Source of the DNA: Escherichia coli
GTDB lineage: Bacteria; Pseudomonadota; Gammaproteobacteria; Enterobacterales; Enterobacteriaceae
NCBI RefSeq assembly: GCF_030013595.1
Contig: NZ_CP122768.1
Reading direction: 5' to 3' (one strand)
Length of the DNA: 64,000 nucleotides
Shown: piece by piece, positions 3,450 to 49,275 of the stretch
How the letters are laid out: the number at the start of each line of letters is the position of its first letter
Numbering within the stretch: position 1 is the first letter of the stretch
Notes under the pieces: model-generated
Told to the model about the DNA's origin: nothing
The model's database searches: none
The model's input: only the letters and a program-made list of their open reading frames with translations
Program-made: the position numbers and the translations under genes

Positions 3450-4166
3450 TTACGCATTACGTTGCAACAACATCGACTTGATATGGCCGATGGCGCGCGT
3501 CGGGTTCAGCCCCTTCGGACATACACTGACGCAGTTCATGATGCTGTGACAGCGGAATACACTGAATGCATCGCTCAAACCGTCGAGGCGGCTGTCAGTC
3601 TCGGTATCACGGCTATCGATCAGGAAACGATATGCCGCTAACAAGCCTGCCGGGCCGATAAACTTATCGGGATTCCACCAGAAAGACGGACAAGAGGTTG
3701 AACAACATGCGCAGAGAATACATTCATACAGCCCGTCGAGTTTTTCGCGCTGCTCTGGCATCTGTAAATGCTCGCGAGCTGGCGGATTTTGTCCATTATT
3801 CAACAGGTAAGGCTTAATTTTCTCATATTGCGCATAGAATTGTCCCATGTCTACCACCAAATCGCGGATCACCGGTAAACCTGGCAGCGGGCGAATCACA
3901 ATCTTCTTGCCCGGCTGGTTGAGTGCCGAAATCGGGGTAATACAGGCCAGACCATTCTTGCCGTTCATGTTCAGACCGTCGGAACCGCACACACCTTCAC
4001 GACAGGAGCGACGGAACGACAGGCTGGGATCTTTCTCTTTCAGCTGGATAAGCGCATCCAGCAGCATCATGTCGCGACCTTCTTCCGCTTCCAGGGTGTA
4101 ATCCTGCATACGCGGAGCATCATCAACATCCGGGTTATAGCGATAAATTGAAAACTCGAGTCTCAT
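3450..4166 (-). CDS. sdhB: succinate dehydrogenase iron-sulfur subunit
   Basis: ORF track 238 aa, MRLEFSIYRYNPDVDD..., Cys clusters typical of SdhB. Confidence 0.97.
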   Translation of the reverse strand: MRLEFSIYRYNPDVDDAPRMQDYTLEAEEGRDMMLLDALIQLKEKDPSLSFRRSCREGVCGSDGLNMNGKNGLACITPISALNQPGKKIVIRPLPGLPVIRDLVVDMGQFYAQYEKIKPYLLNNGQNPPAREHLQMPEQREKLDGLYECILCACCSTSCPSFWWNPDKFIGPAGLLAAYRFLIDSRDTETDSRLDGLSDAFSVFRCHSIMNCVSVCPKGLNPTRAIGHIKSMLLQRNA

Positions 4167-4181
4167 TTTCCTGTCTCCGCA

Positions 4182-5948
4182 TTAGTAAGTACGAATCTTC
4201 GGCGGGAATGCCGGGCGCAGTTTCGGTTCCATGTTGACGCTTCGGCGCGTCATGGATTCCGACTCTGGCAGATACAGGGAGTGGCACAGCCAGTTTTCAT
4301 CATCACGATCCGGGAAGTCGAAGCGGCTATGCGCGCCGCGGCTTTCGGTACGGAAGTTGGCAGAAACAGCCGTTGCATACGCCGTTTCCATCAGGTTATC
4401 CAGTTCCAGGCACTCAACACGCTGGGTGTTGAACTCGCTGGAAGTGTCATCCAGACGGGCATTTTTCAGACGCTCACGGATCACTTTCAACTGCTCAAGC
4501 CCTTTCGCCATCGCATCACCTTCACGGAAGACCGAGAAGTTATGCTGCATACATTCTTGCAGTGCTTTACGGATCGCCACCGGATCTTCACCGTTACGGT
4601 TGTTGTTCCAGCGGTTCAGGCGATCCAGAGACGCTTCTACATCAGACTCGCTGGCATCGCGCAGTGCGCCCTGCTCGGCGATAGACTCTTGCAGATGCAG
4701 ACCCGCTGCGCGACCAAAGACCACCAGGTCCAGCAGCGAGTTGCCGCCCAGACGGTTAGCGCCGTGTACCGATACACAAGCGATTTCACCAACGGCAAAC
4801 AGCCCCGGAACAACCACATCTTCGCCTTTCTCATTCACGGTCAGCGCCTGACCGGTCACTTTGGTCGGAATACCGCCCATCATGTAGTGACAGGTTGGGA
4901 TAACCGGGATCGGCTCTTTCACCGGATCAACGTGAGCGAAGGTACGGGAGAGTTCCAGAATACCCGGCAGACGGGATTCGAGAACTTCTTTACCCAGGTG
5001 GTCAAGTTTCAGTTTCGCGTGTGGCCCCCACGGACCATCACAGCCGCGACCTTCACGGATTTCAATCATGATGGAACGCGCCACCACGTCACGGCCCGCC
5101 AGGTCTTTGGCGTTCGGCGCATAACGCTCCATAAAGCGTTCGCCATGTTTGTTCAGCAGATAACCGCCTTCACCACGGCAACCTTCGGTGACCAGTACGC
5201 CCGCTCCTGCAATGCCGGTCGGGTGGAACTGCCACATTTCCATATCCTGCACTGGTACGCCTGCACGGATAGCCATGCCGACGCCGTCGCCAGTGTTAAT
5301 GTGGGCGTTGGTAGTGGACTGATAAATACGCCCTGCCCCGCCAGTCGCCAGCACGGTAGCGCGGGCTTTGAAATAAACCACTTCACCAGTTTCGATGCAC
5401 AGTGCGGTACAACCGACCACCGCGCCATCCTGGTTTTTCACCAGATCCAGCGCATACCACTCGGAGAAAATGGTGGTGTGGTTTTTCAGGTTCTGCTGAT
5501 AAAGGGTGTGCAACAGTGCGTGACCGGTACGGTCAGCAGCCGCCGCAGTACGTGCCGCCTGCTCGCCGCCGAAGTTTTTCGACTGACCGCCAAACGGACG
5601 TTGATAGATACGACCATCATCAAGACGCGAGAACGGCAGACCCATATGTTCCAGTTCCAGAATCGCTTCCGGCCCGGTTTTACACATATATTCAATCGCG
5701 TCCTGGTCACCGATATAGTCCGAACCTTTTACGGTGTCGTACATATGCCATTCCCAGTTATCTTCATGGGTATTACCCAGCGCAACGGTAATGCCGCCTT
5801 GCGCAGAAACGGTATGGGAACGGGTCGGGAAGACTTTAGAGAGCAGCGCACAGGTCTGACCGCTCTGGGAAATTTGCAGCGCCGCGCGCATACCTGCGCC
5901 ACCGGCACCAATCACAACTGCATCAAATTCTCTGACTGGCAATTTCAT
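4182..5948 (-). CDS. sdhA: succinate dehydrogenase flavoprotein subunit
   Basis: ORF track 592 aa; real start taken at internal [19 protein letters not shown] (ATG 5946-5948, ATGA overlap with sdhD stop), giving 588 aa. Confidence 0.95.
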
Positions 5949-23686: not shown

Positions 23687-26600
23687 TCAGTACCTCCCGT
23701 TAGGAACAGAAAATCCAGGCAAACGCCTTAGATTTTCCCACGATTCAGGGAAGTGAGTTAAGATCACTGGTGTTTTCCCTATCTGACTTGTTGCAGTAAA
23801 CAAACCTGTTTCAGGATCATAATAGCCTACTCTAGGTTTATTCGTATACCTATCTCTATAAGTAAATTTCCTGCCATTTTGTATCGTGGTTCTTGCACTA
23901 ATATCATATTCTTTTACTGAATTTGCACCGACTTGTGAGCCATGTTTTTCAAAGTGATCTCTTAGGCCCGGCCCATCAACATTTTGTCGTGCTTTATTCC
24001 ATTTTGCATTTTTAGCCGTACCACAAAATAACCCAAGCGGATCGATCCAGCTTAACGGATTTGGCACATAAGCATAGAGGTTCAGCCCACCGTTTAATCC
24101 TATCGGGTCCGTTACCATGAACCGCCCGACATCCGGATCATAGTACCTGTGCAGATTGTAATGCAGCCCCGTTTCCCTGTCGAGGTACTGTCCCTGGTAG
24201 CGCAGGTTCTGCTCCACCCCGCCGTGGTCCTTCTCCTGTATCGTGTTACCCCAGACCTGATACCCCGTCTCCCACACGATTTTCCCGTCGCTGTCCGTCA
24301 TCTCTTCCGGCGCGCCGTTCACATCCGTGTGAAAATACAGTATCCGGTTCGGGCCCTCTTTGCCCGCCTTATCCACCCGCGCCAGCGGTTCATAACTCCC
24401 CGGGTCCCTGTAGATGTACAGGCTGTCTGTTCCCTCCGGCCTGCTCTCCTGCGCCAGCCGCATTCCGTCCCATAAAAATTTTGTCCGGTTGTACGGTTTA
24501 CCGTCAGGACTGATGTGCTGTTTTTCCGTCCGCCTCCCCAGCGCATCGTACACATACCGGTACGTCCCCCGCGCTGTCGTCACTTCCACCATCCGGTGTT
24601 CCGCATCATAACGGTAACTCTGCGTGCCGCTCCGCCCCTCCTTTTCCACCGCACGGCCAAATTCGTCGTAACGGTAGTGCACACCACGGTAAGACATCAG
24701 CCGGTTGAACGGCACCACGCTGTTTTCTGCCGTGGCCCTTTCCCCCGCGCGCCGCGCCAGCAGGTTTCCCGCCGCGTCGTACTGCCAGCTCGCCAGATAC
24801 CCCTCATCCTCCGAGCGGCACGCCGTGATGCGCCCCGTGGGGTCGTAGAAGTAATCCGTTTCCCCCCGCCGGCTGTGCCGCGTCTTCAGCAGTTCATCCT
24901 CGCCACTGTAGCTGTACTGCCGGTCCGTGAACGTCTCCGGTACCCCCCCGCGCATCCCGCTGTATGTCTCCCTGCGCTTCAGCCGCCCGCCGGGGTCGTA
25001 AAGCTGCCGCGTGCTCAGTCGCCCCTGGCTTCTGAGCACTTCACGGTGCAGGGCGTCACGTGTGAACTCGCTGATGACCTCCCGGTCCAGATTTATCTGC
25101 TGGAGATGGCCGCTGCCGTAGTACAGATGACGCTGCGTTCTGCCGTCCGGAAAGGTGGTGGCTGTCCGGTTGCTGAGTTCATCGTACTGATGGGTCAGGA
25201 CGCCCTGCGCCGTCTCCTCAGTCAGCATCCGCCCCAGTCTGTCGTAACTGAAGCGGATAATCTCCGGTGCGTCTGTTTCCCCGGCATCCGACCGTCGGCG
25301 GCGGATTTCCAGTAGCTGGTCTGCCGCATCATGGACGTATTCCGTACGGCTATCGGCTGTCTCCTTTGCCGTAAGCCGGCCCGCCGCATCACGTGCCAGC
25401 CGATGGCGGATTTCACCGCCCCGGTCCCCGGTGAACACCACTTCCGTGACCGCGTTCAGCGCGTTGTAGCGGTACGTCTGGCGGCAGCCGTCCGGATTTA
25501 TCTGCTCCGCCAGACGGTCCAGCACATCATGGCGGAACCGGTAGCTTTCTCCGTTCTCGTTTGTCAGCGTGACCAGACGCCCGTAAGCATCGTACCCGAA
25601 TGCCGTCCTGCGCCCCGTCGCGTCCGTCCGGCTGCGCACCCGGCCCTGCCCGTCCCGCTGCCAGCGCGTTATCCTCCCCATCGGGCTGGTGTACTTCACC
25701 AGCCTGCCCGCCGCGTCCGACTGGTAATTCACCGTGCGGCCGTCCGCCAGTATCACCTCCGTCAGGTGGCCGCTGTCGTCATACCCGTAGCGCGTGCTGT
25801 GGCTCTGCGCGTCTGTCATCCGTATCAGCCGCGTGCGTTCGTCGTAGAACCAGGCCGTCTGCGAGCCGGAACAGTCCGTGTGCCGCATGAGCTGCCCGTC
25901 TTCGTTCCACTGAAGGTATTTATTCCCCCCGCGCGCATCGGTTATCTGCACCACCTGGCCGTGGCGGTCATACTGATACCGGGTGTTCTGCTGCAGCGGG
26001 TCGGTCACCGCAAGAAGATTGCCGCGTTCATCGTACTCACAGCACCAGCTGTTCCCCGCCGCGTCCACCTCCGTTTCCGGCTGGTGCCACACCGGGTGCC
26101 ACTGTGTCTGTGCCACCCGCCCCAGCGGGTCGTGCGTCTCCGTGATATGCCCCTGCCGGTCATACACATAGCGCCATTTGCCGCCCTGCGCATCGGTCAT
26201 TCCCAGTAACAGCCGTTCTTCGTCGCTCCAGCGGAACGTCGTCACCTGCCCGGCTTCGTCCTGGTACGCCGTCACCTGGTTCTGCGCGTCCCACTGATGA
26301 TAACGCGTGCGCCCCAGCCCGTCCGTCACGCACAGCCTGCGTGACGCCAGGCTCCACGCCAGCCGGTACTGTTCACCGCTGTCCGTGTGGTGCCCCGTCA
26401 CCCGCCACGCTGCGTCATCCGGGCCTTCATACCAGCCCCACTGGTAATAATACCCTTCGCCGCCCGGCTGGCGGTGCAGGGTCATGCAGTGGTTTTCGTC
26501 GTAAGCAAACTCGCGCAGCAGGTGTCCCGTGCTGTCGTACACGCCGTTCAGGTCGCCGGCCTCGTCATAGCGGTAACGACGCAGCAGTAAAGGAGCCGTC

Positions 26601-34275: not shown

Positions 34276-36952
34276 CGAACCCTTACGTCCCGACCCCGAT
34301 CGTCTGCTGGAACAAACTGCCGCGCCGCATCGGGGGAAGCTGAAAGTTTTCTTCGGTGCCTGCGCAGGCGTCGGGAAGACCTGGGCGATGCTGGCAGAAG
34401 CCCAGCGACTGCGGGCGCAAGGGCTGGATATTGTGGTTGGCGTGGTAGAAACCCACGGGCGGAAAGATACCGCCGCAATGCTGGAAGGGCTGGCTGTTCT
34501 GCCGTTAAAACGCCAGGCGTACCGTGGGCGGCACATCAGCGAGTTTGATCTCGATGCCGCCCTCGCCCGCCGTCCGGCACTGATCTTAATGGACGAACTG
34601 GCGCACAGTAATGCGCCAGGTTCTCGTCATCCTAAACGCTGGCAGGACATCGAAGAGCTGCTGGAAGCTGGCATTGATGTTTTCACAACCGTCAACGTTC
34701 AGCATCTGGAAAGTCTGAATGATGTGGTCAGCGGCGTCACCGGAATTCAGGTACGGGAAACCGTGCCCGATCCTTTTTTCGATGCCGCCGACGACGTGGT
34801 GCTGGTGGACTTGCCCCCGGACGATCTGCGTCAACGGCTGAAAGAAGGTAAAGTCTATATTGCCGGGCAGGCGGAACGCGCCATTGAACATTTTTTTCGC
34901 AAAGGCAATCTGATCGCCCTGCGCGAACTGGCACTGCGCCGTACTGCCGATCGCGTAGATGAGCAAATGCGCGCCTGGCGGGGGCATCCTGGCGAAGAGA
35001 AAGTCTGGCACACGCGCGACGCGATCCTTTTATGCATCGGGCATAACACCGGCAGCGAAAAACTGGTCCGCGCGGCGGCGCGGCTGGCGTCACGGCTGGG
35101 TAGCGTCTGGCACGCGGTGTATGTTGAAACCCCTGCCCTGCATCGCTTACCAGAGAAAAAACGTCGGGCAATTCTCAGCGCCTTACGTCTGGCGCAGGAG
35201 CTGGGCGCAGAGACGGCAACACTTTCTGATCCAGCGGAAGAGAAAGCGATAGTGCGTTATGCCCGTGAACATAATCTCGGCAAGATTATTCTCGGTCGCC
35301 CAGCCTCGCGCCGCCGGTGGCGTCGGGAAACGTTTGCTGACCGACTGGCGCGCATCGCCCCCGATCTCGATCAGGTGCTGGTCGCGCTTGATGAACCACC
35401 CGCCCGCACGATAAACAACGCGCCGGATAGCCGCTCTTTTAAAGACAAGTGGCGGGTACAGATTCAGGGATGCGTGGTTGCCGCCGCGTTATGCGCCGTT
35501 ATCACCTTAATTGCCATGCAGTGGCTGATGGCGTTTGATGCCGCCAACCTGGTGATGCTGTACCTACTTGGCGTGGTGGTGGTGGCGCTATTTTATGGAC
35601 GCTGGCCTTCGGTGGTTGCTACCGTCATTAATGTGGTGAGTTTCGATCTCTTTTTTATCGCCCCACGCGGCACGCTCGCCGTCTCTGATGTGCAATATCT
35701 GCTGACCTTCGCGGTGATGTTAACCGTCGGGCTGGTGATCGGGAACCTTACTGCTGGCGTTCGTTATCAGGCGCGGGTAGCCCGTTACCGCGAGCAACGC
35801 ACACGGCACTTATATGAAATGTCGAAAGCTCTGGCGGTGGGCCGCAGTCCGCAGGACATCGCCGCCACCAGCGAACAATTTATTGCCTCCACGTTTCATG
35901 CCCGCAGTCAGGTGTTGTTGCCCGATGACAACGGTAAATTGCAGCCGTTAACACATCCGCAAGGAATGACGCCGTGGGACGATGCCATCGCGCAGTGGAG
36001 TTTTGATAAAGGCCTGCCTGCGGGCGCGGGCACCGACACGTTACCCGGTGTACCGTACCAGATTTTGCCGCTAAAAAGCGGCGAGAAAACCTACGGGCTG
36101 GTGGTGGTGGAACCGGGGAATCTGCGCCAGTTGATGATCCCGGAACAGCAACGCCTGCTGGAGACGTTTACGCTGTTAGTCGCCAATGCCCTTGAGCGGC
36201 TGACACTGACCGCCAGCGAAGAACAGGCGCGGATGGCAAGCGAACGAGAACAGATCCGCAACGCCCTGCTGGCGGCGCTTTCGCATGATTTACGCACGCC
36301 GCTTACGGTGCTGTTCGGTCAGGCAGAAATCTTAACGCTCGATCTGGCGAGCGAAGGATCGCCCCACGCCCGCCAGGCCAGCGAGATTCGTCAGCATGTG
36401 CTGAACACGACCCGACTGGTGAATAATCTACTGGATATGGCGCGAATTCAGTCCGGCGGCTTTAATTTGAAGAAAGAGTGGTTAACGCTGGAAGAAGTGG
36501 TCGGCAGCGCGCTGCAAATGCTGGAACCGGGTTTATCGTCGCCCATCAATCTTTCTCTGCCAGAACCGCTGACCTTAATCCACGTTGACGGGCCACTCTT
36601 TGAACGGGTGCTGATTAATCTGCTGGAGAACGCGGTGAAATACGCGGGGGCGCAGGCCGAAATTGGTATCGATGCCCACGTTGAGGGCGAGAAGCTACAA
36701 CTGGATGTCTGGGATAACGGCCCCGGTCTTCCGCCAGGCCAGGAGCAGACGATATTTGATAAGTTTGCTCGCGGGAATAAAGAGTCGGCGATACCGGGTG
36801 TCGGGCTTGGGCTGGCAATTTGTCGGGCGATTGTGGATGTACACGGCGGCACCATTACCGCGTTCAACCGACCGGAAGGTGGTGCCTGTTTTCGTGTTAC
36901 ACTTCCCCAGCAAACTGCCCCTGAACTTGAAGAATTTCATGAGGATATGTGA
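34268..36952 (+). CDS. kdpD: sensor histidine kinase KdpD
   Basis: Within ORF 34235..36952; start at [14 protein letters not shown] (ATG 34268), 894 aa; H-box SHDLRTPL and ATPase motifs. Confidence 0.95.
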
Positions 36953-37626
36953 CAAACGTTCTGATTGTTGAAGATGAACAGGCTATTCGTCGCTTTCTGC
37001 GCACGGCGCTGGAGGGCGACGGTATGCGCGTCTTTGAGGCCGAAACGCTGCAACGCGGCTTGCTGGAAGCGGCAACCCGTAAGCCAGATTTGATTATTCT
37101 CGATCTCGGCCTGCCCGATGGTGATGGGATTGAGTTTATCCGCGACCTGCGCCAGTGGAGCGCGGTGCCGGTGATTGTGCTTTCCGCACGTAGCGAAGAG
37201 AGCGACAAAATCGCCGCGCTGGATGCCGGAGCGGATGATTATCTGAGTAAGCCGTTTGGCATTGGCGAATTGCAGGCCCGTCTGCGCGTCGCATTACGCC
37301 GCCACTCTGCCACCACCACGCCCGATCCGCTGGTGAAATTTTCCAATGTTACCGTCGATTTAGCGGCTCGAGTGATCCATCGCGGTGAGGAAGAGGTGCA
37401 TCTCACCCCGATTGAGTTCCGCCTGCTGGCGGTGTTGCTTAATAATGCGGGAAAAGTGCTCACCCAGCGCCAGCTCCTTAACCAGGTGTGGGGGCCAAAC
37501 GCGGTCGAACACAGTCATTATTTGCGTATTTATATGGGGCATCTGCGACAAAAACTGGAACAGGATCCCGCCCGCCCACGCCATTTCATTACTGAAACCG
37601 GTATTGGGTATCGGTTTATGCTTTGA
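36949..37626 (+). CDS. kdpE: response regulator KdpE (OmpR family)
   Basis: ORF track 225 aa [17 protein letters not shown]...; GTG start overlapping kdpD stop. Confidence 0.95.
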   Translation: MTNVLIVEDEQAIRRFLRTALEGDGMRVFEAETLQRGLLEAATRKPDLIILDLGLPDGDGIEFIRDLRQWSAVPVIVLSARSEESDKIAALDAGADDYLSKPFGIGELQARLRVALRRHSATTTPDPLVKFSNVTVDLAARVIHRGEEEVHLTPIEFRLLAVLLNNAGKVLTQRQLLNQVWGPNAVEHSHYLRIYMGHLRQKLEQDPARPRHFITETGIGYRFML

Positions 37627-37900
37627 ATTGTTATTCAATAAATTCGCTTTAATAGTGATTAATTTATTATTAAACCTGCTCCAAATATTATTATTTGGCA
37701 GGTTTAATTTCTTAACGCAAATATAAAACACGAAATTACAACATTTAAGTAACAAAACAGCATCTAATATGGCAATATTCATAATTAATGATTTATTATC
37801 TGGGGTATGATCGTTTTTTGTTGATCTTCTTCACAGATTATAGCCATTTCATGGATAGAATAACTCTACCTTCAACTGACACAGCAAGAGGTAAAGGTAA

Positions 37901-38005
37901 ATGGAAAATAATAACCGCTTAATGCCTCATATAAGGCGGACAACCCATATCATGAAGTTTGCCCATCGTAATAGTTTTGACTTTCATTTCTTTAATGCCC
38001 GCTAG
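37901..38005 (+). CDS. speFL: speF leader peptide (ornithine-sensing arrest peptide)
   Basis: Hand-translated 34-codon ORF MENNNRLMPHIRRTTHIMKFAHRNSFDFHFFNAR, about 310 bp upstream of speF; below the 60-aa ORF-track cut-off. Confidence 0.75.
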   Translation: MENNNRLMPHIRRTTHIMKFAHRNSFDFHFFNAR

Positions 38006-38315
38006 TCTTCTGACTAAAGGGCACCCCAACGTACAGGTCTCCCTGACTTTAAGCATTACAGGTTAATACCTGTATCCCTCGGTGCTCATATACTGCTAAC
38101 CCTTTTAAACTCTAAATAATTCGAGTCGCAGCACTTGCAACTTGAGGTATGACGAGTATAGCCAGTTACCGGGCTGGTCTGGGTTATTGCATCTACAAAA
38201 AGCAAACTACTGATTTATTTATCAGCGGTGGGGTTTTGCTTTTTTTCCGGCGTGATCGATTTCTCCTTTGAGAAATTGAGGACCTGCTATTACCTGAAAT
38301 AAAGAGATGAACAAA

Positions 38316-40514
38316 ATGTCAGAATTAAAAATTGCCGTTAGTCGTTCTTGCCCGGATTGTTTTTCAACTCATCGCACATGCGTGAATATTGACGAAAGTA
38401 ATTATATTGACGTTGCCGCCATTATTTTATCGGTCAATGATGTGGAACGTGGAAAACTCGATGAAATAGACGCTACTGGCTATGGCATTCCTGTTTTTAT
38501 TGCAACGGAAAATGAAGAACGTGTACCCGCAGAATATCTGCCACGTATTTCTGGTGTCTTCGAACATTGCGAATCACGTAAAGAGTTTTATGGACGTCAG
38601 TTAGAAACCGCTGCAAGCCATTATGAAACGCAACTGCGCCCGCCCTTCTTCCGCGCACTGGTCGATTATGTTAATCAGGGCAATAGTGCTTTTGACTGCC
38701 CTGGTCATCAGGGGGGTGAGTTTTTCCGTCGCCATCCGGCAGGCAATCAGTTCGTGGAATACTTTGGTGAGGCGCTGTTCCGTGCTGACTTGTGCAACGC
38801 CGACGTAGCGATGGGCGATCTGCTGATTCACGAAGGCGCGCCATGCATTGCACAGCAACATGCGGCTAAAGTCTTTAATGCCGATAAAACCTATTTCGTT
38901 TTAAACGGTACTTCATCTTCTAATAAAGTGGTCTTAAACGCATTGCTGACGCCGGGCGATCTGGTGTTGTTTGACCGCAATAACCATAAATCTAACCACC
39001 ACGGTGCGTTGCTACAGGCTGGCGCGACACCGGTTTATCTGGAAACCGCACGTAACCCGTATGGTTTTATCGGTGGTATTGACGCTCACTGTTTTGAAGA
39101 AAGTTACCTGCGTGAGCTGATTATAGAAGTTGCACCGCAGCGGGCAAAAGAGGCTCGTCCTTTCCGCCTCGCCGTTATTCAGCTAGGCACTTACGACGGT
39201 ACGATTTATAACGCCCGTCAGGTGGTGGATAAAATTGGTCATCTGTGTGACTACATCCTCTTTGACTCCGCATGGGTCGGCTATGAGCAGTTTATCCCGA
39301 TGATGGCGGACTGTTCACCACTGTTGCTGGATCTTAATGAGAACGATCCGGGTATTCTGGTTACGCAATCCGTACATAAACAGCAGGCTGGTTTTTCTCA
39401 AACTTCACAAATCCATAAAAAAGACAACCACATCAAAGGGCAACAGCGTTATGTACCGCACAAACGCATGAACAACGCCTTTATGATGCACGCCTCCACC
39501 AGCCCGTTCTATCCGCTGTTTGCCGCACTGGATATCAACGCCAAAATGCATGAAGGTGTCAGCGGTCGTAATATGTGGATGGATTGTGTGGTAAATGGCA
39601 TTAATGCCCGCAAACTGATCCTCGATAACTGTCAGCATATTCGTCCGTTCGTACCTGAACTGGTGGATGGTAAACCCTGGCAGTCGTATGAAACAGCGCA
39701 AATTGCGGTTGATCTGCGCTTCTTCCAGTTTGTACCAGGGGAACACTGGCATTCTTTTGAAGGCTATGCAGAGAATCAATACTTTGTTGATCCGTGCAAA
39801 CTGTTGCTGACAACCCCAGGTATTGATGCACGTAACGGCGAATATGAAGCGTTCGGTGTACCCGCGACGATTCTTGCTAATTTCCTGCGCGAAAATGGCG
39901 TAGTGCCGGAAAAATGCGATCTTAACTCCATCCTCTTCCTGCTGACTCCAGCAGAAGATATGGCCAAACTTCAGCAACTTGTTGCCCTGCTGGTACGCTT
40001 CGAAAAACTGCTGGAATCTGATGCGCCGCTGGCGGAAGTGCTACCTTCCATCTACAAACAGCATGAAGAGCGCTACGCCGGTTATACGCTTCGTCAGTTG
40101 TGCCAGGAAATGCATGATTTGTATGCCCGCCACAACGTGAAACAACTGCAAAAAGAGATGTTCCGTAAGGAACACTTCCCACGCGTCAGCATGAATCCGC
40201 AAGAAGCTAACTACGCCTATTTACGCGGTGAAGTGGAGCTGGTTCGTCTGCCGGATGCAGAAGGCCGTATCGCTGCCGAAGGTGCGCTTCCTTATCCTCC
40301 GGGTGTGCTGTGTGTTGTTCCGGGTGAAATCTGGGGTGGTGCTGTTTTGCGTTACTTCAGCGCTCTGGAAGAAGGGATCAACCTGCTGCCAGGTTTTGCA
40401 CCGGAGCTGCAGGGTGTCTATATCGAAGAACATGATGGTCGTAAGCAAGTTTGGTGCTATGTCATCAAGCCTCGTGATGCGCAAAGCACCCTGTTGAAAG
40501 GGGAAAAATTATGA
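38316..40514 (+). CDS. speF: inducible ornithine decarboxylase
   Basis: Within ORF 38307..40514; start taken at MSELKIAVS (ATG 38316), 732 aa. Confidence 0.95.
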   Translation: MSELKIAVSRSCPDCFSTHRTCVNIDESNYIDVAAIILSVNDVERGKLDEIDATGYGIPVFIATENEERVPAEYLPRISGVFEHCESRKEFYGRQLETAASHYETQLRPPFFRALVDYVNQGNSAFDCPGHQGGEFFRRHPAGNQFVEYFGEALFRADLCNADVAMGDLLIHEGAPCIAQQHAAKVFNADKTYFVLNGTSSSNKVVLNALLTPGDLVLFDRNNHKSNHHGALLQAGATPVYLETARNPYGFIGGIDAHCFEESYLRELIIEVAPQRAKEARPFRLAVIQLGTYDGTIYNARQVVDKIGHLCDYILFDSAWVGYEQFIPMMADCSPLLLDLNENDPGILVTQSVHKQQAGFSQTSQIHKKDNHIKGQQRYVPHKRMNNAFMMHASTSPFYPLFAALDINAKMHEGVSGRNMWMDCVVNGINARKLILDNCQHIRPFVPELVDGKPWQSYETAQIAVDLRFFQFVPGEHWHSFEGYAENQYFVDPCKLLLTTPGIDARNGEYEAFGVPATILANFLRENGVVPEKCDLNSILFLLTPAEDMAKLQQLVALLVRFEKLLESDAPLAEVLPSIYKQHEERYAGYTLRQLCQEMHDLYARHNVKQLQKEMFRKEHFPRVSMNPQEANYAYLRGEVELVRLPDAEGRIAAEGALPYPPGVLCVVPGEIWGGAVLRYFSALEEGINLLPGFAPELQGVYIEEHDGRKQVWCYVIKPRDAQSTLLKGEKL

Positions 40515-41830
40515 GTCAGGCTAAATCGAACAAAATGGGCGTCGTTCAGTTAACCATACTGACGATGGTCAACATGATGGGCTCCGGTATCATCATGCTG
40601 CCGACAAAGCTTGCCGAAGTTGGGACAATTTCAATTATCTCCTGGCTGGTGACAGCCGTAGGCTCAATGGCACTGGCATGGGCATTCGCAAAATGCGGTA
40701 TGTTCAGCCGTAAATCAGGCGGTATGGGCGGTTATGCGGAGTATGCTTTCGGTAAATCCGGGAACTTTATGGCGAACTATACCTACGGCGTCTCACTGCT
40801 AATTGCTAACGTCGCGATTGCTATTTCGGCGGTTGGTTACGGCACCGAACTGCTCGGCGCGAGTTTGTCGCCAGTGCAGATTGGTCTTGCGACCATCGGG
40901 GTGCTGTGGATTTGTACCGTGGCTAACTTTGGTGGTGCGCGCATTACCGGGCAAATCAGTAGCATTACCGTGTGGGGGGTCATTATTCCGGTGGTAGGCC
41001 TGTGCGTTATCGGCTGGTTCTGGTTTAGCCCGACGCTTTACGTTGATTCCTGGAATCCGCATCATGCACCGTTCTTCAGTGCGGTAGGTTCTTCCATCGC
41101 TATGACGCTGTGGGCTTTTCTTGGTCTGGAGTCTGCGTGTGCGAATACTGATGTAGTGGAAAACCCGGAACGTAATGTGCCAATCGCGGTACTCGGCGGT
41201 ACGTTAGGTGCGGCGGTGATTTATATCGTCTCCACCAACGTGATTGCAGGGATTGTGCCTAATATGGAGCTGGCAAATTCAACGGCACCATTTGGCCTGG
41301 CCTTCGCACAGATGTTCACGCCAGAAGTGGGTAAAGTCATTATGGCGCTGATGGTGATGTCCTGCTGCGGTTCGCTGCTTGGCTGGCAGTTCACCATTGC
41401 CCAGGTGTTTAAATCTTCATCTGATGAAGGCTACTTCCCTAAAATTTTCTCCCGTGTAACCAAAGTGGATGCACCGGTGCAGGGAATGTTGACCATTGTG
41501 ATTATCCAGAGCGGGTTGGCGCTGATGACGATTAGCCCGTCGCTAAACAGTCAGTTCAACGTGCTGGTTAACCTGGCCGTGGTGACCAATATCATTCCGT
41601 ATATTCTGTCAATGGCGGCATTAGTCATTATTCAGAAGGTCGCTAATGTGCCCCCCTCAAAAGCGAAAGTTGCAAACTTTGTTGCTTTTGTTGGCGCGAT
41701 GTACAGCTTTTATGCGCTGTACTCATCCGGGGAAGAAGCCATGCTATACGGTTCCATCGTGACCTTCCTCGGTTGGACACTGTATGGTCTGGTCTCACCA
41801 CGCTTTGAACTGAAAAATAAACACGGTTAA
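40511..41830 (+). CDS. potE: putrescine-ornithine antiporter
   Basis: ORF track 439 aa MSQAKSNKMGVVQLTILTMVNMMGSGIIML...; ATGA overlap with speF stop. Confidence 0.97.
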   Translation: MSQAKSNKMGVVQLTILTMVNMMGSGIIMLPTKLAEVGTISIISWLVTAVGSMALAWAFAKCGMFSRKSGGMGGYAEYAFGKSGNFMANYTYGVSLLIANVAIAISAVGYGTELLGASLSPVQIGLATIGVLWICTVANFGGARITGQISSITVWGVIIPVVGLCVIGWFWFSPTLYVDSWNPHHAPFFSAVGSSIAMTLWAFLGLESACANTDVVENPERNVPIAVLGGTLGAAVIYIVSTNVIAGIVPNMELANSTAPFGLAFAQMFTPEVGKVIMALMVMSCCGSLLGWQFTIAQVFKSSSDEGYFPKIFSRVTKVDAPVQGMLTIVIIQSGLALMTISPSLNSQFNVLVNLAVVTNIIPYILSMAALVIIQKVANVPPSKAKVANFVAFVGAMYSFYALYSSGEEAMLYGSIVTFLGWTLYGLVSPRFELKNKHG

Positions 41831-41842
41831 TTAAGCAAAGCA

Positions 41843-41874
41843 AAAAAGGGCGATCTTCCGACCGCCCTTTTTCT
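41843..41874. terminator. bidirectional rho-independent terminator between potE and pgm
   Basis: AAAAAAGGGCG ... CGCCCTTTTTCTT hairpin flanked by A-run and T-run in the 56-bp convergent gap. Confidence 0.65.
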
Positions 41875-41886
41875 TATTTAATGTGT

Positions 41887-43527
41887 TTACGCGTTTTTCA
41901 GAACTTCGCTAACAATCTCAACCGCTTCTTTCTCGATCTGCTTGCGATGCTCTTCACCGAGGAAGCTTTCGCAATAAATCTTGTACGCGTCTTCCGTGCC
42001 TGACGGACGCGCGGCGAACCAGCCGTTGTCAGTCATCACTTTCAGACCGCCAATAGAAGCACCGTTGCCCGGAGCAGCAGTCAGGCGTGCGGTGATCGGG
42101 TCACCTGCCAGGGTGCTGGCGCTCACCATTTCCGGAGACAGCTTAGACAGCGCCGCTTTTTGTGCGGAAGTCGCAGCTGCCTGCAAACGGTTGTAGCTCG
42201 GCGCACCAAAGCGTTTTGCCAGTTCGTTGTAGTGTTCCTGCGGGTTCTTACCGGTGACCGCGGTGATTTCTGCCGCCAGCAGACACATAATGATACCGTC
42301 TTTATCGGTTGACCACGGCGTGCCGTCGAAACGCAGGAAGGAAGCCCCTGCGCTCTCTTCGCCGCCAAAGCCGAAGCTGCCGTCGAACAGACCATCAACA
42401 AACCATTTGAAACCTACCGGGACTTCTACCAGCTTACGGCCCAAGTCATTGACCACACGGTCGATCATCGCAGATGAAACCAGCGTTTTACCGACAGCAA
42501 CATCTTTGCCCCACTGCGGACGATGCTGGAACAGGTAGTTGATCGCCACCGCCAGGTAGTGGTTCGGATTCATCAAACCTGCCGGAGTGACGATACCGTG
42601 ACGGTCATAATCCGGGTCGTTAGCAAACGCCAGATCGAACTTATCACGCAGTGCCAGCAGACCCGCCATCGCACACTCGGAGGAGCAGTCCATACGGATC
42701 GCACCGTCTTTATCGAGGTGCATAAAGCGGAAGGTTTGATCGACCTGATCGTTAACGATGGTCAGGTTGAGGTTGTAATACTCGCCAATGCGCTTCCAGT
42801 ATTCGATACCGGAACCACCCAGCGGATCAACGCCCAGCGTCAGGCCCGCTTTCTGAATCGCCGCCATATCAACGATATCGGCCAGCCCTTCCACAAACGG
42901 CTGCACCAGATCCTGCTCTTTCACATGACCGGATGCCATCGCTTCGTCGAGGGAGATACGCTTCACGCCTTTCAGGCCATCAGCCAGCAGTGCGTTGGCT
43001 CTGTCTTCCACCACTTTAGTGACGTTGGTATCAGCCGGGCCACCATTTGGCGGATTGTACTTGATACCACCATCTTCCGGCGGGTTATGGGACGGTGTAA
43101 TCACGATACCGTCTGCCAGCGGGCCACCTTTTTTATTGTGAACCAGGATGGCATTGGAAACGGCAGGCGTCGGAGTGAAGCCATTGTTTTCCTGCACAAT
43201 AACATCTACGCCGTTCGCTGCCAGCACTTCCAGTACGGAAATGAACGCAGGCTCGGACAGGGCGTGAGTATCTTTACCCACATAGCAAGGGCCAGTGATG
43301 CCGTTTTTCGCACGTTCTTCAGCAATTGCCTGAGCGATCGCCAGAATGTGCGGCTCGTTAAAGCTGTGGCGCGCTGCACTGCCACGGTGACCGGAAGTAC
43401 CGAATTTCACCGCGTGCTCCGCATTCCCTGCTTCTGGTTTCAGTACATAATATTGCGCCGTCAGTTGGGCGACGTTAATCAAATCACTCTGTTGTGCAGG
43501 TTGGCCTGCACGATTGTGGATTGCCAT
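41887..43527 (-). CDS. pgm: phosphoglucomutase
   Basis: Within ORF 41887..43578; start at [16 protein letters not shown] (ATG 43525-43527), 546 aa; TSGHRG phosphoserine-loop-like motif present. Confidence 0.95.
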
Positions 43528-43552
43528 TGCTTTGTCCTTTGTCTGCAACGTT

Positions 43553-44098
43553 TTAGATAGTTCCGCAAACCTTCTCAATCAATTCCGCCGGGAATTGCAT
43601 CGACTGCATGATGTGTTCGATCATGCTGCATTTACGGCCGGTGTTGGTGTTGGTGATCACCCAATACGGCGTGCCAGGCACATGTTTCGGCTTGGTCTGA
43701 TTACCATTTTTCAGCAGCGTTTGTTCATCTGCCGCAAAGTAAACGCGTGTACGACCGTGCAACGATTCCGTTGCTTCGGCAAACGCCTGGGCGTCAAGAG
43801 AATATAGTGTAGACAACAGCAGCATAAAGCGATTGACCGCTCGCTTTTGCTCTGCGTATTCATCCGAAAGCAGAAGTTCACGCATTGCGCGAACCTTGTC
43901 TTTAATCGTTTTGACCGGCTTCGCTTCGACGATAGCAGGTGACGCAACGCGAACCTCTTTCGTCACCGGAGCAGCAGGCTGTGATGCGGCGGAAAATTTC
44001 AACATACGCCGTAAAATGTCGGATGCGCTCTCGCCGATATGCTTAGTGTGGCTGGCAATATAGCTGTAGAGTTCATCATCAACTTCAATCGTTTTCAT
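43553..44098 (-). CDS. seqA: replication initiation negative regulator SeqA
   Basis: Within ORF 43553..44233; start at [22 protein letters not shown] (ATG 44096-44098), 181 aa. Confidence 0.95.
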
Positions 44099-44282
44099 CT
44101 TAATCCAGTGCAGTGTCTTAGCTGAATACAAGTCGCCAGGAGTATATGAATAAATCCCGGCAGCGGATAGCGTCAAGCCTGGCTTGCAGAAAAACTCGGA
44201 ATAAACCTTATTTGTTGCAGCCCTGTGGCACAATGGTCAACATAATACCCTAACCCGACAACGCGAAAAAAAGAACTTTGCC

Positions 44283-45047
44283 ATGAAATTGAATATCCGC
44301 GCGCAAACTGCACAAAACCAGCACAATAATTCTCCCATCGTTCTTGTCCATGGTCTGTTTGGTAGCCTCGACAACCTTGGCGTACTGGCTCGCGATCTGG
44401 TAAACGATCACAATATCATCCTGGTTGATATGCGTAACCACGGTCTTTCACCGAGAGATCCGGTGATGAATTACCCGGCGATGGCGCAGGATCTTGTTGA
44501 TACCCTGGATGCACTGCAGATCGACAAAGCAACATTTATCGGTCACTCCATGGGCGGTAAAGCGGTAATGGCACTTACTGCACTGGCCCCCGATCGCATC
44601 GATAAACTGGTGGCGATCGATATCGCACCGGTCGACTATCACGTACGCCGGCATGATGAGATTTTCGCGGCCATCAACGCAGTCAGTGAATCGGACGCAC
44701 AAACTCGCCAGCAAGCAGCAGCAATAATGCGCCAGCATCTTAATGAAGAAGGGGTGATTCAGTTTCTGCTGAAATCTTTTGTTGACGGGGAGTGGCGCTT
44801 TAACGTGCCGGTATTGTGGGATCAGTATCCGCATATTGTGGGTTGGGAGAAAATCCCGGCCTGGGATCACCCTGCCCTGTTTATCCCAGGCGGCAACTCT
44901 CCGTATGTTAGCGAGCAGTACCGTGATGATTTACTGGCACAATTTCCACAGGCACGGGCGCATGTGATTGCAGGCGCGGGTCACTGGGTCCATGCTGAAA
45001 AACCGGATGCGGTATTACGCGCTATCCGTCGCTATCTCAATGATTAA
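44283..45047 (+). CDS. ybfF: alpha/beta-hydrolase esterase
   Basis: ORF track 254 aa MKLNIRAQTAQNQHNNSPIVLVHGLFGS..., GHSMGG nucleophile elbow. Confidence 0.93.
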   Translation: MKLNIRAQTAQNQHNNSPIVLVHGLFGSLDNLGVLARDLVNDHNIILVDMRNHGLSPRDPVMNYPAMAQDLVDTLDALQIDKATFIGHSMGGKAVMALTALAPDRIDKLVAIDIAPVDYHVRRHDEIFAAINAVSESDAQTRQQAAAIMRQHLNEEGVIQFLLKSFVDGEWRFNVPVLWDQYPHIVGWEKIPAWDHPALFIPGGNSPYVSEQYRDDLLAQFPQARAHVIAGAGHWVHAEKPDAVLRAIRRYLND

Positions 45048-47344: not shown

Positions 47345-48209
47345 TCAGAAGATGGTGAATGGTGCGATTACCATGAATTTCACGTCGCGCTCATCCTGGA
47401 AAATGTTGCCGTAACCACCGCCCCAGCTTGGGATGTCGGAGTGGTTGTCATATTCGGTGAAATGCAGTTTGAACATCGTGCCCTTGGCGCGACCGTCCTG
47501 AATGGTGTACACCGCATCCAGGCTATATGCAGACTCTTCAATAGTCCGGTTCTTGTCGTAGTACGCATCCGGATTGCTCTGCCAGGTAGCGGGTTTAGCA
47601 TCCCATGCGTAAACGTAGGAAGCGCCGATGGCGAAGCCTGGAAGATTCCAGTTTTTCAGGTCATACATCGCACCGAAGAAGACCGCTTTTTCGCCGTTGG
47701 CGTTGAAGTCAGAACGGTTATCCCACCAGATATCCAGGCGACCGTTCGAGGAAGCGTAGGTTGGAGTCATACGTTGCAGGAAGTATCCCTGCTGACCGTC
47801 GGCTTTAACCCAGGTGCCTTCCAGACGCAAATCCACTACATCAGCCGCCCGGTAACCAAAGGTCAACGCTTGCAGCCAGGCGGTGCCGTCATAAAGATCG
47901 TTGACGCTGCGATCGTCAACTTTATCGCGCGTACCATAGAACTGGTAGCTGGTGGTTAACGGGCTACCGGCGATATCAAATTTGTAGCTGGCTTTGGCAA
48001 AATATTGATCGATATCCCCTTCTGCCTGACCAAATGCCGCTTCCAGTACAAAGTTATTTTTGAAGTCGTACTTCGCACCGATGGAGTGCAGATAATCAAC
48101 TTTGGTGGTTTTATCGTTCTGATAAAACTCATCCATTTCCAGATGCCACGGTGCTTTGTATTCGTTGGTCCACATGTAGGAGAAACTCAAGGCACCAGCA
48201 TCGCCGTAA
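47345..48209 (-). pseudogene. chiP: chiP chitoporin, C-terminal fragment (gene split by IS903-family insertion)
   Basis: Frame reading ...[21 protein letters not shown]... continues the N-terminal fragment exactly across the insertion. Confidence 0.9.
48201..48209. repeat. target-site duplication (left copy), TCGCCGTAA
   Basis: Identical 9-mer at 49267..49275 immediately flanking the other IS end. Confidence 0.9.
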
Positions 48210-48227
48210 GGCTTTGTTGAATAAATC
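48210..48227. repeat. IS903 left terminal inverted repeat
   Basis: GGCTTTGTTGAATAAATC; inverse complement found at 49249..49266. Confidence 0.9.
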
Positions 48228-48286
48228 GAACTTTTGCTGAGTTGAAGGATCAGATCACGCATCCTCCCGACAACACAGACCATTCC

Positions 48287-49210
48287 GTGGCAAAGCAAAA
48301 GTTCAGAATCACCAACTGGTCCACCTACAACAAAGCTCTCATCAACCGTGGCTCCCTCACTTTCTGGCTGGATGATGAAGCGATTCAGGCCTGGTATGAG
48401 TCGGCAACGCCTTCATCACGAGGAAGGCCCCAGCGCTATTCTGATCTCGCCATCACCACCGTTCTGGTGATTAAACGCGTATTCCGGCTGACCCTGCGGG
48501 CTGCGCAGGGCTTTATTGATTCCATTTTTTCTCTGATGAACGTTCCGCTACGCTGCCCGGATTACAGCTGTGTCAGCAGGCGGGCAAAGTCGGTTAATGT
48601 CAGTTTCAAAACGCCCACCCGGGGTGAAATCGCACACCTGGTAATTGATTCCACCGGGCTGAAGGTCTTCGGTGAAGGCGAGTGGAAAGTCAAAAAGCAT
48701 GGCCAGGAACGCCGCCGTATCTGGCGTAAGCTGCATCTCGCCGTTGACAGTAAAACACATGAAATCATCTGCGCTGACCTGTCGCTGAACAACGTTACGG
48801 ACTCAGAGGCCTTCCCCGGGTTAATCCGGCAAACCCACCGGAAAATCAGGTCAGCCGCCGCCGATGGCGCTTACGATACCCGGCTATGTCACGATGAACT
48901 GCGGCGTAAGAAAATCAGCGCGCTTATCCCTCCCCGAAAAGGTGCGGGTTACTGGCCCGGTGAATATGCAGACCGTAACCGTGCAGTGGCTAATCAGCGA
49001 ATGACCGGGAGTAATGCGCGGTGGAAATGGACAACAGATTACAACCGTCGCTCGATAGCGGAAACGGCGATGTACCGGGTAAAACAGCTGTTCGGGGGTT
49101 CACTGACGCTGCGTGACTACGATGGTCAGGTTGCGGAGGCTATGGCCCTGGTACGAGCGCTGAACAAAATGACGAAAGCAGGTATGCCTGAAAGCGTGCG
49201 TATTGCCTGA
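48287..49210 (+). CDS. IS903-family transposase
   Basis: ORF track 48242..49210; GTG at 48287 gives 307 aa beginning [39 protein letters not shown], matching the IS903 transposase as I recall it. Confidence 0.9.
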
Positions 49211-49248
49211 AAACACAACCCGCTACGGGGGAGACTTACCCAAAATCT

Positions 49249-49266
49249 GATTTATTCAACAAAGCC
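49249..49266. repeat. IS903 right terminal inverted repeat
   Basis: GATTTATTCAACAAAGCC, perfect inverse complement of the left repeat. Confidence 0.9.
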
Positions 49267-49275
49267 TCGCCGTAA
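49267..49275. repeat. target-site duplication (right copy), TCGCCGTAA
   Basis: Identical to 48201..48209. Confidence 0.9.

Follow-up and report, generated by a model that had tools for sequence, protein, structure and literature searches.

The 56-bp pgm/potE junction of an Escherichia coli chromosome and the structural alleles of the kdpE-to-pgm interval

In Escherichia coli K-12 the convergent genes pgm and potE are held apart by ybfP and two pseudogenes, and a chromosome in which their stops lie close together raises the question of whether the intervening DNA was lost by that strain or is itself an accessory part of the locus. This question was examined in a 64,000-nucleotide stretch of E. 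coli DNA (hereafter the window) by comparison with K-12 MG1655, with other complete E. coli genomes and with related species.

The junction and its hairpin in the window

The genes at the junction (Table 1) were identified with NCBIfam equivalog models, PotE matching NF007938 at 856 bits, Pgm matching TIGR01132 at 1074 bits and SpeF reaching 1433 bits. A sequence-only reading of the window had placed the convergent pgm and potE stops 56 bp apart, a distance that is exact in the sequence, in the ORF list and in the RefSeq annotation of E. coli HCP5S3_I2 (pig, UK), a near-identical genome annotated with the same genes at the same spacing. HCP5S3_I2 and LCP30S3_I5 are the closest genomes to the window, at approximately 99.95% identity, with HCP5S3_I2 being 99.95-100% identical at the junction, and the flanks of the window are 97.75% identical to those of K-12. 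An Rfam scan of positions 36500-44500 returned no family at gathering score, and with it no known small RNA or leader in the spacer.

Table 1. Features at and near the pgm/potE junction, in coordinates of the window
Feature	Coordinates	Strand	Description	Basis
kdpE	36949..37626	+	3'-terminal 145 bp (37483-37627) duplicated in K-12 as ybfI	BLAST, annotation
speF (inducible ornithine decarboxylase)	38316..40514	+	operon with potE	NCBIfam, RefSeq
potE (putrescine-ornithine antiporter)	40511..41830	+	439 aa, stop TAA at 41828-41830	ORF list, NCBIfam, RefSeq of near-identical genome
spacer between the convergent potE and pgm stops	41831..41886	.	56 bp, short allele of the locus	
bidirectional intrinsic-terminator hairpin (predicted), the only one in the spacer	41842..41873	.	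AAAAAAGGGCGATC-TTCC-GACCGCCCTTTTT, given in the feature list as AAAAAAGGGCGATC-TTCC-GACCGCCCTTTTTC	terminator scan, folding on both strands
pgm (phosphoglucomutase)	41887..43527	-	546 aa, stop is TTA on the plus strand at 41887-89	NCBIfam TIGR01132, RefSeq

The A/T-extended hairpin in the spacer starts 11 nt past the potE stop and ends 13 nt short of the pgm stop, and on each strand the stem is followed directly on its 3' side by a T/U-run, within TTTTTCTTATTT on the plus strand and TTTTTTGCTTTGCTT on the minus strand. RNA folding against composition-matched shuffles gave -21.5 kcal/mol for the minus strand (z -5.2, a stability matched by 0 of 200 shuffles) and -15.3 kcal/mol for the plus strand (z -2.8). 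The weaker plus-strand fold is due to an A·C mismatch in the stem, in place of which the minus-strand transcript has a G·U pair, and pgm transcripts would accordingly be terminated more strongly than those of potE. The terminator scan gave a minus-strand match with 14 pairs, 6 of them GC. The hairpin has the anatomy of a bidirectional intrinsic terminator, with a predicted function: its symmetrical layout, in which a GC stem has an A-run upstream and a T-run downstream, could terminate transcription from both directions. The single bidirectional terminator claimed from the sequence thus corresponds to one hairpin with T-runs on both strands, and the termination that was claimed along with it stands as a prediction.

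Elsewhere in the window, chiP is interrupted by an IS903-type insertion sequence of 1,057 bp (48210-49266), which is bounded by the inverted repeats GGCTTTGTTGAATAAATCG and encodes a DDE_Tnp_1 transposase (ORF 48242-49210). A target duplication of 9 bp, TCGCCGTAA, flanks it as direct repeats at 48201-48209 and 49267-49275. The element is absent from the otherwise 99.95%-identical HCP5S3_I2, indicating a recent insertion, and it probably inactivates the chitoporin.

Alleles of the interval in E. coli and related species

The same two stops are 1,747 bp apart in MG1655, where the interval contains ybfP, encoding a lipoprotein, and the pseudogenes ybfG and ybfI. The K-12 gene order given in that reading, with ybfP and ybfG between pgm and potE, agrees with the MG1655 annotation (pgm, ybfP, ybfG, in addition ybfI, then potE), and a check of MG1655 for the same 56-bp junction found the 1,747-bp interval instead, so the difference is real. 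The spacer of the window is 1,691 bp shorter, and the earlier estimate that about 1.5 kb was missing had the right direction and too small a size. A BLAST search of the 64-kb window with the 1,747-bp K-12 spacer recovered just the terminator, a REP-like 33-mer and the kdpE 3' end, the K-12 island being absent. The match to the kdpE 3' end covers 145 bp at 91% identity, and ybfI is a stranded copy of that gene end.

The GC content of the K-12 interval is 43.7%, below that of potE (50.6%) and pgm (55.3%). No integrase, transposase or recombinase gene was found in the extra DNA of K-12, the features of which are the lipoprotein gene, the DUF2625 pseudogene and the kdpE fragment. YbfP matched no Pfam or NCBIfam family and YbfG matched only DUF2625 and 'hypothetical' equivalogs, so that no function can be proposed for these K-12 genes. 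The gene ybfP has been described as accessory and enriched in phylogroup A in a pangenome study (PMC5422975); in the literature on the phylogroup distribution of ybfP/ybfG and speF/potE, passing pangenome mentions but no dedicated account of the alleles of the locus were found. Carriage of the island on plasmids was rejected, as a tblastn search of plasmids with YbfP gave 3 matches only, all in records of 0.73-4.9 Mb whose size suggests whole or partial chromosomes filed under the wrong heading.

Alleles were counted in 5,426 complete E. coli genomes, a collection biased towards laboratory K-12 derivatives, O157:H7 and clinical or outbreak clones, in which the values are database proportions and not population frequencies. 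The short junction, scored where at least 80% of a 1,056-bp junction-centred query was covered in one place, is present in 3,196 genomes (59%), and the K-12-type interval in 1,851 (34%). The gene potE is present in 5,045 genomes (93%), and the remaining 381 (7%), from which the whole speFL-speF-potE cassette is absent, have at the site either kdpE-BIME-ybfP-pgm (247 genomes, 4.6%; BIME denotes a REP cluster), kdpE-ybfG-ybfP-pgm (3 genomes, CUWW10, GF4-3 and KL53, <0.1%) or other variants. A 222-bp form with the order potE-termL-BIME-termR-pgm, in which termL and termR are the terminators adjoining potE and pgm, was counted in 2 genomes (<0.1%) and also occurs in E69, a GTDB species-representative genome titled E. 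coli. E. coli thus has five or more structural alleles at the site, namely the short junction, the K-12 mosaic, kdpE-ybfP, kdpE-ybfG-ybfP and the 222-bp two-terminator form.

The window carries the majority allele of an ordinary presence/absence polymorphism, which is visible in the annotations of thousands of RefSeq genomes. Nine other short-allele genomes that were read base by base (Z0117EC0032, S10EC, EcPF14, 2022H048, FDAARGOS_1302, O157:H7, 7_29_23A, O104:H4 and LWY24) have spacers of 55-57 bp. The short junction had been offered as a sign of a non-reference background, and it does mark the strain as non-K-12 at this locus, but it marks no more than that, is nothing unusual and matters little. 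The K-12 segment that the strain was said to lack is likewise absent, but the segment is accessory and its absence is not to be read as a recent deletion in the strain.

The terminators of the long alleles share 13-14 bp exactly, and an assembly in which two such terminators had been collapsed would also show a short junction. A repeat of this length is far too short to collapse an assembly, however, and the junction recurs in the 3,196 complete genomes counted above, which come from many laboratories and platforms and include one independent genome identical to the window across the junction. An assembly artefact is rejected on these two grounds and is considered to have practically no chance of being correct.

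The junction query also matches 11 places in plasmids. In NZ_CP182310.1, a 78-kb plasmid of E. coli EC100 from a pig, the match at 25573-25927 is a potE fragment that is approximately 90% identical to the potE 3' end of the window.

Related species were represented by one genome per GTDB species, anchored on Pgm, which gave 80 loci, 73 of them informative. The order pgm-potE-speF was found at 36 of the 73 loci, pgm directly adjoining kdpE at 25, a speF-like gene without potE at 3 and other insertions at 9; about half of the pgm/potE spacers in these Pgm-anchored loci are approximately 100 bp or shorter. With the speFL-speF-potE cassette at the site in 36 species and missing in 25, it appears to have been repeatedly gained or lost between kdpE and pgm. 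No match to YbfG or YbfP was obtained in the 80 species loci, even at E<=1. A tight convergent pgm/potE junction is the normal arrangement in the family and the K-12 interval an accessory state, because the latter is low in GC, the species loci have no YbfG or YbfP, and short spacers are common.

Longer pgm-potE intervals occur in Salmonella subsp. diarizonae and arizonae (L016 and L024; ~670 bp, with a small ORF and REP-like elements) and in Kluyvera (L037, L044 and L056; ~1.09 kb). These fillers are lineage-specific and unrelated to ybfP/ybfG.

The close outgroups comprised one genome each of E. albertii and of two divergent Escherichia lineages. In E. albertii NBRC 107761 the convergent pgm and potE are separated by a 57-bp spacer with a single symmetrical hairpin and have flanks 6-11% divergent from those of the window. 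The hairpin is of the termL type (GGGCGATCGAATGATCGCCC), identical to termL of E69, and differs from that of the window at 5 of 20 positions.

Origin of the K-12 and short alleles

Read from potE, the K-12 allele consists of termL (AAAAAAGGGCGATTGAATGATCGCCCTTT), a 43-bp segment ending in a partial REP, the 145-bp kdpE end (ybfI), ybfG (DUF2625), ybfP, the BIME, termR (AAAAAAGGGCGATCTTGCGACCGCCCTTTTTTT) and pgm, with termL and termR similar to each other. The parent haplotype that this order predicts, in which a full kdpE is followed by ybfG, was found with a chimeric query in 3 genomes. One of them, GF4-3, is annotated as kdpD-kdpE-DUF2625-ybfP-pgm-seqA, with no speFL, speF or potE, and positions 82-1747 of the K-12 spacer align to it as one block of 97.96% identity, which includes the kdpE 3' end, ybfG, ybfP, the BIME and termR. 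The K-12 allele is therefore a mosaic in which a potE-termL-REP end is followed by a kdpE-ybfG-ybfP-BIME-termR-pgm haplotype, the two parts meeting 145 bp before the kdpE stop, where the two haplotypes would have been joined illegitimately at the REP. The combination of a homologous anchor on one side only, an illegitimate REP junction and a duplicated gene end matches, as far as anatomy can suggest, homology-facilitated illegitimate recombination, which is documented in E. coli (PMC3240628).

In the comparison of K-12 with GF4-3, ybfI has far more than its share of the mismatches, 15 in 145 positions, compared with 18 in 1,521 positions elsewhere. The kdpE of the surviving kdpE-ybfG haplotype was rejected as the nearest relative of ybfI, since ybfI matches GF4-3 at 130 of 145 positions and the window at 132. 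Either ybfI has drifted or it may derive from an older kdpE allele, and its being no closer to any extant kdpE allele suggests that the joining event is old. The K-12-type islands of K-12 and AJ5 are 94.6% identical to each other, a divergence that points to an old polymorphism.

In the MG1655 spacer, an imperfect 43-bp direct repeat (positions 40-82 and 1554-1596, 81% identity) brackets ybfI-ybfG-ybfP, and recombination between its copies would interconvert the K-12 allele and the rare 222-bp two-terminator form. The sequence from kdpE to ybfP in E. coli 2018-05-2CC (L005, positions 3889-4190) contains a tandem duplication, the unit of which is a kdpE 3' fragment of ~70-80 bp plus a BIME, and this is a second, independent stranded kdpE end at the locus.

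The short allele bears on the same question through the composition of its hairpin. The 14 nt to the left of the window hairpin are of the potE-side type, and the loop and right arm (GATCTTCCGACCGCCC) together with the next 17 nt are exactly those of termR in R32_14_1F and in the kdpE-ybfP genomes; E69 and SCPM have the same hairpin core as the window, but in the flank one nucleotide differs in E69 and more than one in SCPM. All nine of the other short-allele genomes have a termR-type hairpin on a potE-side flank, with the loops TTCC, TTGC or TTCT. In E. albertii, E69, R32, AJ5 and K-12 the hairpin next to potE has the (C/T)GAATGAT centre of the termL type, and since the short alleles have termR instead, their hairpin would be a recombinant of two lineages and not a simple ortholog. 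The sequence AAAAAAGGGCGAT(C) is found in both termL and termR of K-12, E69 and R32, and the window combines the termL-side flank with the termR loop and right arm. A synthetic short allele with termL gave a best full-length E. coli match of 97.2%, a shortfall equal to the five termL/termR differences, and with this query no termL-type short allele ranked above the termR-type matches in E. coli genomes, in a search that score ties make non-exhaustive. The short-allele terminator is most simply explained by recombination between terminators of the potE and pgm types, with the join inside the AAAAAAGGGCGAT(C) common to both.

The short allele would, on a judgement slightly better than even, have arisen by an old recombination between the similar termL and termR, as a fusion from a two-terminator allele without the island. 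The likeliest parent would be the 222-bp potE-termL-BIME-termR-pgm form, from which the loss of 166 bp (segment A and the BIME) is the most economical route. A parent of the short allele would be expected to be common, and the rarity of the 222-bp form (2 of 5,426 genomes) weakens this step without refuting it. The occurrence of the termL type in E. albertii and in every long allele speaks for a derived chimera, yet the junction of E. albertii is itself short and has a single hairpin.

The same chimera could have been produced from the K-12-type island, if the lineage of the window had once had it and had lost ybfI-ybfG-ybfP and the BIME by a 1,691-bp deletion between the directly repeated terminators. 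Deletion of the K-12 allele between termL and termR within AAAAAAGGGCGAT predicts exactly the observed hairpin; the short alleles of O104:H4 and 7_29_23A have the termR loop (TTGC) and right flank of K-12, and the Pgm protein of the window is identical to that of the ybfP-bearing CB209 and GF4-3. Deletions between short repeats fall off steeply with distance, however, and a loss of 1,691 bp is less likely for so short a repeat than the loss of just 166 bp from the 222-bp form, which would yield an identical junction. To the left of the hairpin, the 14 nt found in the short alleles (..AAGCAAAG[C/T]) are also unlike those of every long allele sampled. Loss of a K-12-type island is therefore considered quite improbable, and since the short allele predominates and is found with varied potE and pgm sequences around it, such a deletion would be old and not specific to the strain.

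The junction of E. albertii allows a different history, in which the short form is ancestral, the hairpin is a diverged ortholog or was converted from the pgm side, no deletion took place and the long alleles are later insertions. This agrees with the single-hairpin 57-bp spacer of E. albertii, with the adjacency of pgm and potE in 36 of the 73 species loci, often across less than ~100 bp, and with the low GC content of the island and its absence from all outgroups. A heteroduplex from a termR-bearing donor could extend out of pgm and stop inside the hairpin at the limit of homology, and in this way the right half of the hairpin in an ancestral short form could later have been overwritten from pgm-side donors. 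All 10 of the short E. coli alleles examined are of the termR type, however, a type that elsewhere accompanies pgm, also where the haplotype has no potE, and an ancestral short junction is regarded as a tentative explanation, on the doubtful side.

Both the fusion from a two-terminator allele, which is the preferred reading, and its alternatives have to accommodate the exchange of sequence around the junction. Alleles of the termR loop and right flank are shared between short and long forms, K-12 sharing with O104:H4, AJ5 with LWY24, and R32 and the Form C genomes with the window, a pattern that fits recurrent deletion or recombination alike. The last 400 bp of pgm (41887-42286) vary unusually strongly among E. 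coli, being 94-98.5% identical to the window. In the potE 3' end (41431-41830) the window is identical to EcPF14, yet the pgm ends of the two differ by 5.75%, indicating recombination breakpoints at or beside the terminator. The shared termR alleles and the polymorphic pgm 3' end show frequent recombination around the junction, which blurs the polarity between long and short alleles.

On this evidence the window can be said with good confidence to carry the common short allele of a multi-allelic kdpE-to-pgm polymorphism, of which K-12 has an accessory mosaic, and the short form would not be a recent loss by the strain.

Wider meaning and comparison with known systems

The reference arrangement of K-12 is the odd one at this locus, a derived mosaic that keeps a stranded kdpE end (ybfI) from a haplotype without speF and potE. 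Because it is a mosaic, users of MG1655 coordinates should not take the absence of ybfP and ybfG from a genome as a deletion. The kdpE-pgm interval has several alleles, is rich in REP elements and terminators and is a recombination hotspot, and on a small scale it could illustrate how such elements bring about rearrangements. The divergence between alleles is deep, with potE 3' ends falling to 92% identity in addition to the values given above for the pgm 3' ends and for the two K-12-type islands. It has been considered whether recombination has been concentrated in the kdpE-pgm interval since early in the history of Enterobacteriaceae, starting from REP/BIME elements and terminators, and whether allele divergence results from long-term selection on acid-inducible putrescine production and export and not from neutral turnover; such a history seems unlikely.

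Bidirectional intrinsic terminators between convergent bacterial genes are a general phenomenon (bioRxiv 10.1101/2022.10.23.513370). Like these, the hairpin of the window has a GC-rich stem between an A-run and a T-run, forms a hairpin with a U-tract on each strand and is flanked by two stops. Such terminators are also known from 3'-end mapping studies in E. coli.

The likeness to homology-facilitated illegitimate recombination and to REP-BIME rearrangement is a feature of the K-12 allele and not of the window sequence. The K-12 interval (b0688-b0692) has the same flanking genes, orientation and operon context as the window (kdpDE, speFL-speF-potE and pgm-seqA), but contains two terminators, the ybfI relic, the ybfG pseudogene, ybfP and a BIME in place of the 56 bp and single chimeric terminator of the window. 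The short-junction E. coli genomes in RefSeq, such as O157:H7, O104:H4 2011C-3493 and HCP5S3_I2, are equal to the window in structure, with a 55-57-bp spacer and a termR-type hairpin, and differ from it only by single-nucleotide polymorphisms in the 14-nt left flank, in the loop (TTCC, TTGC or TTCT) and in the right flank.
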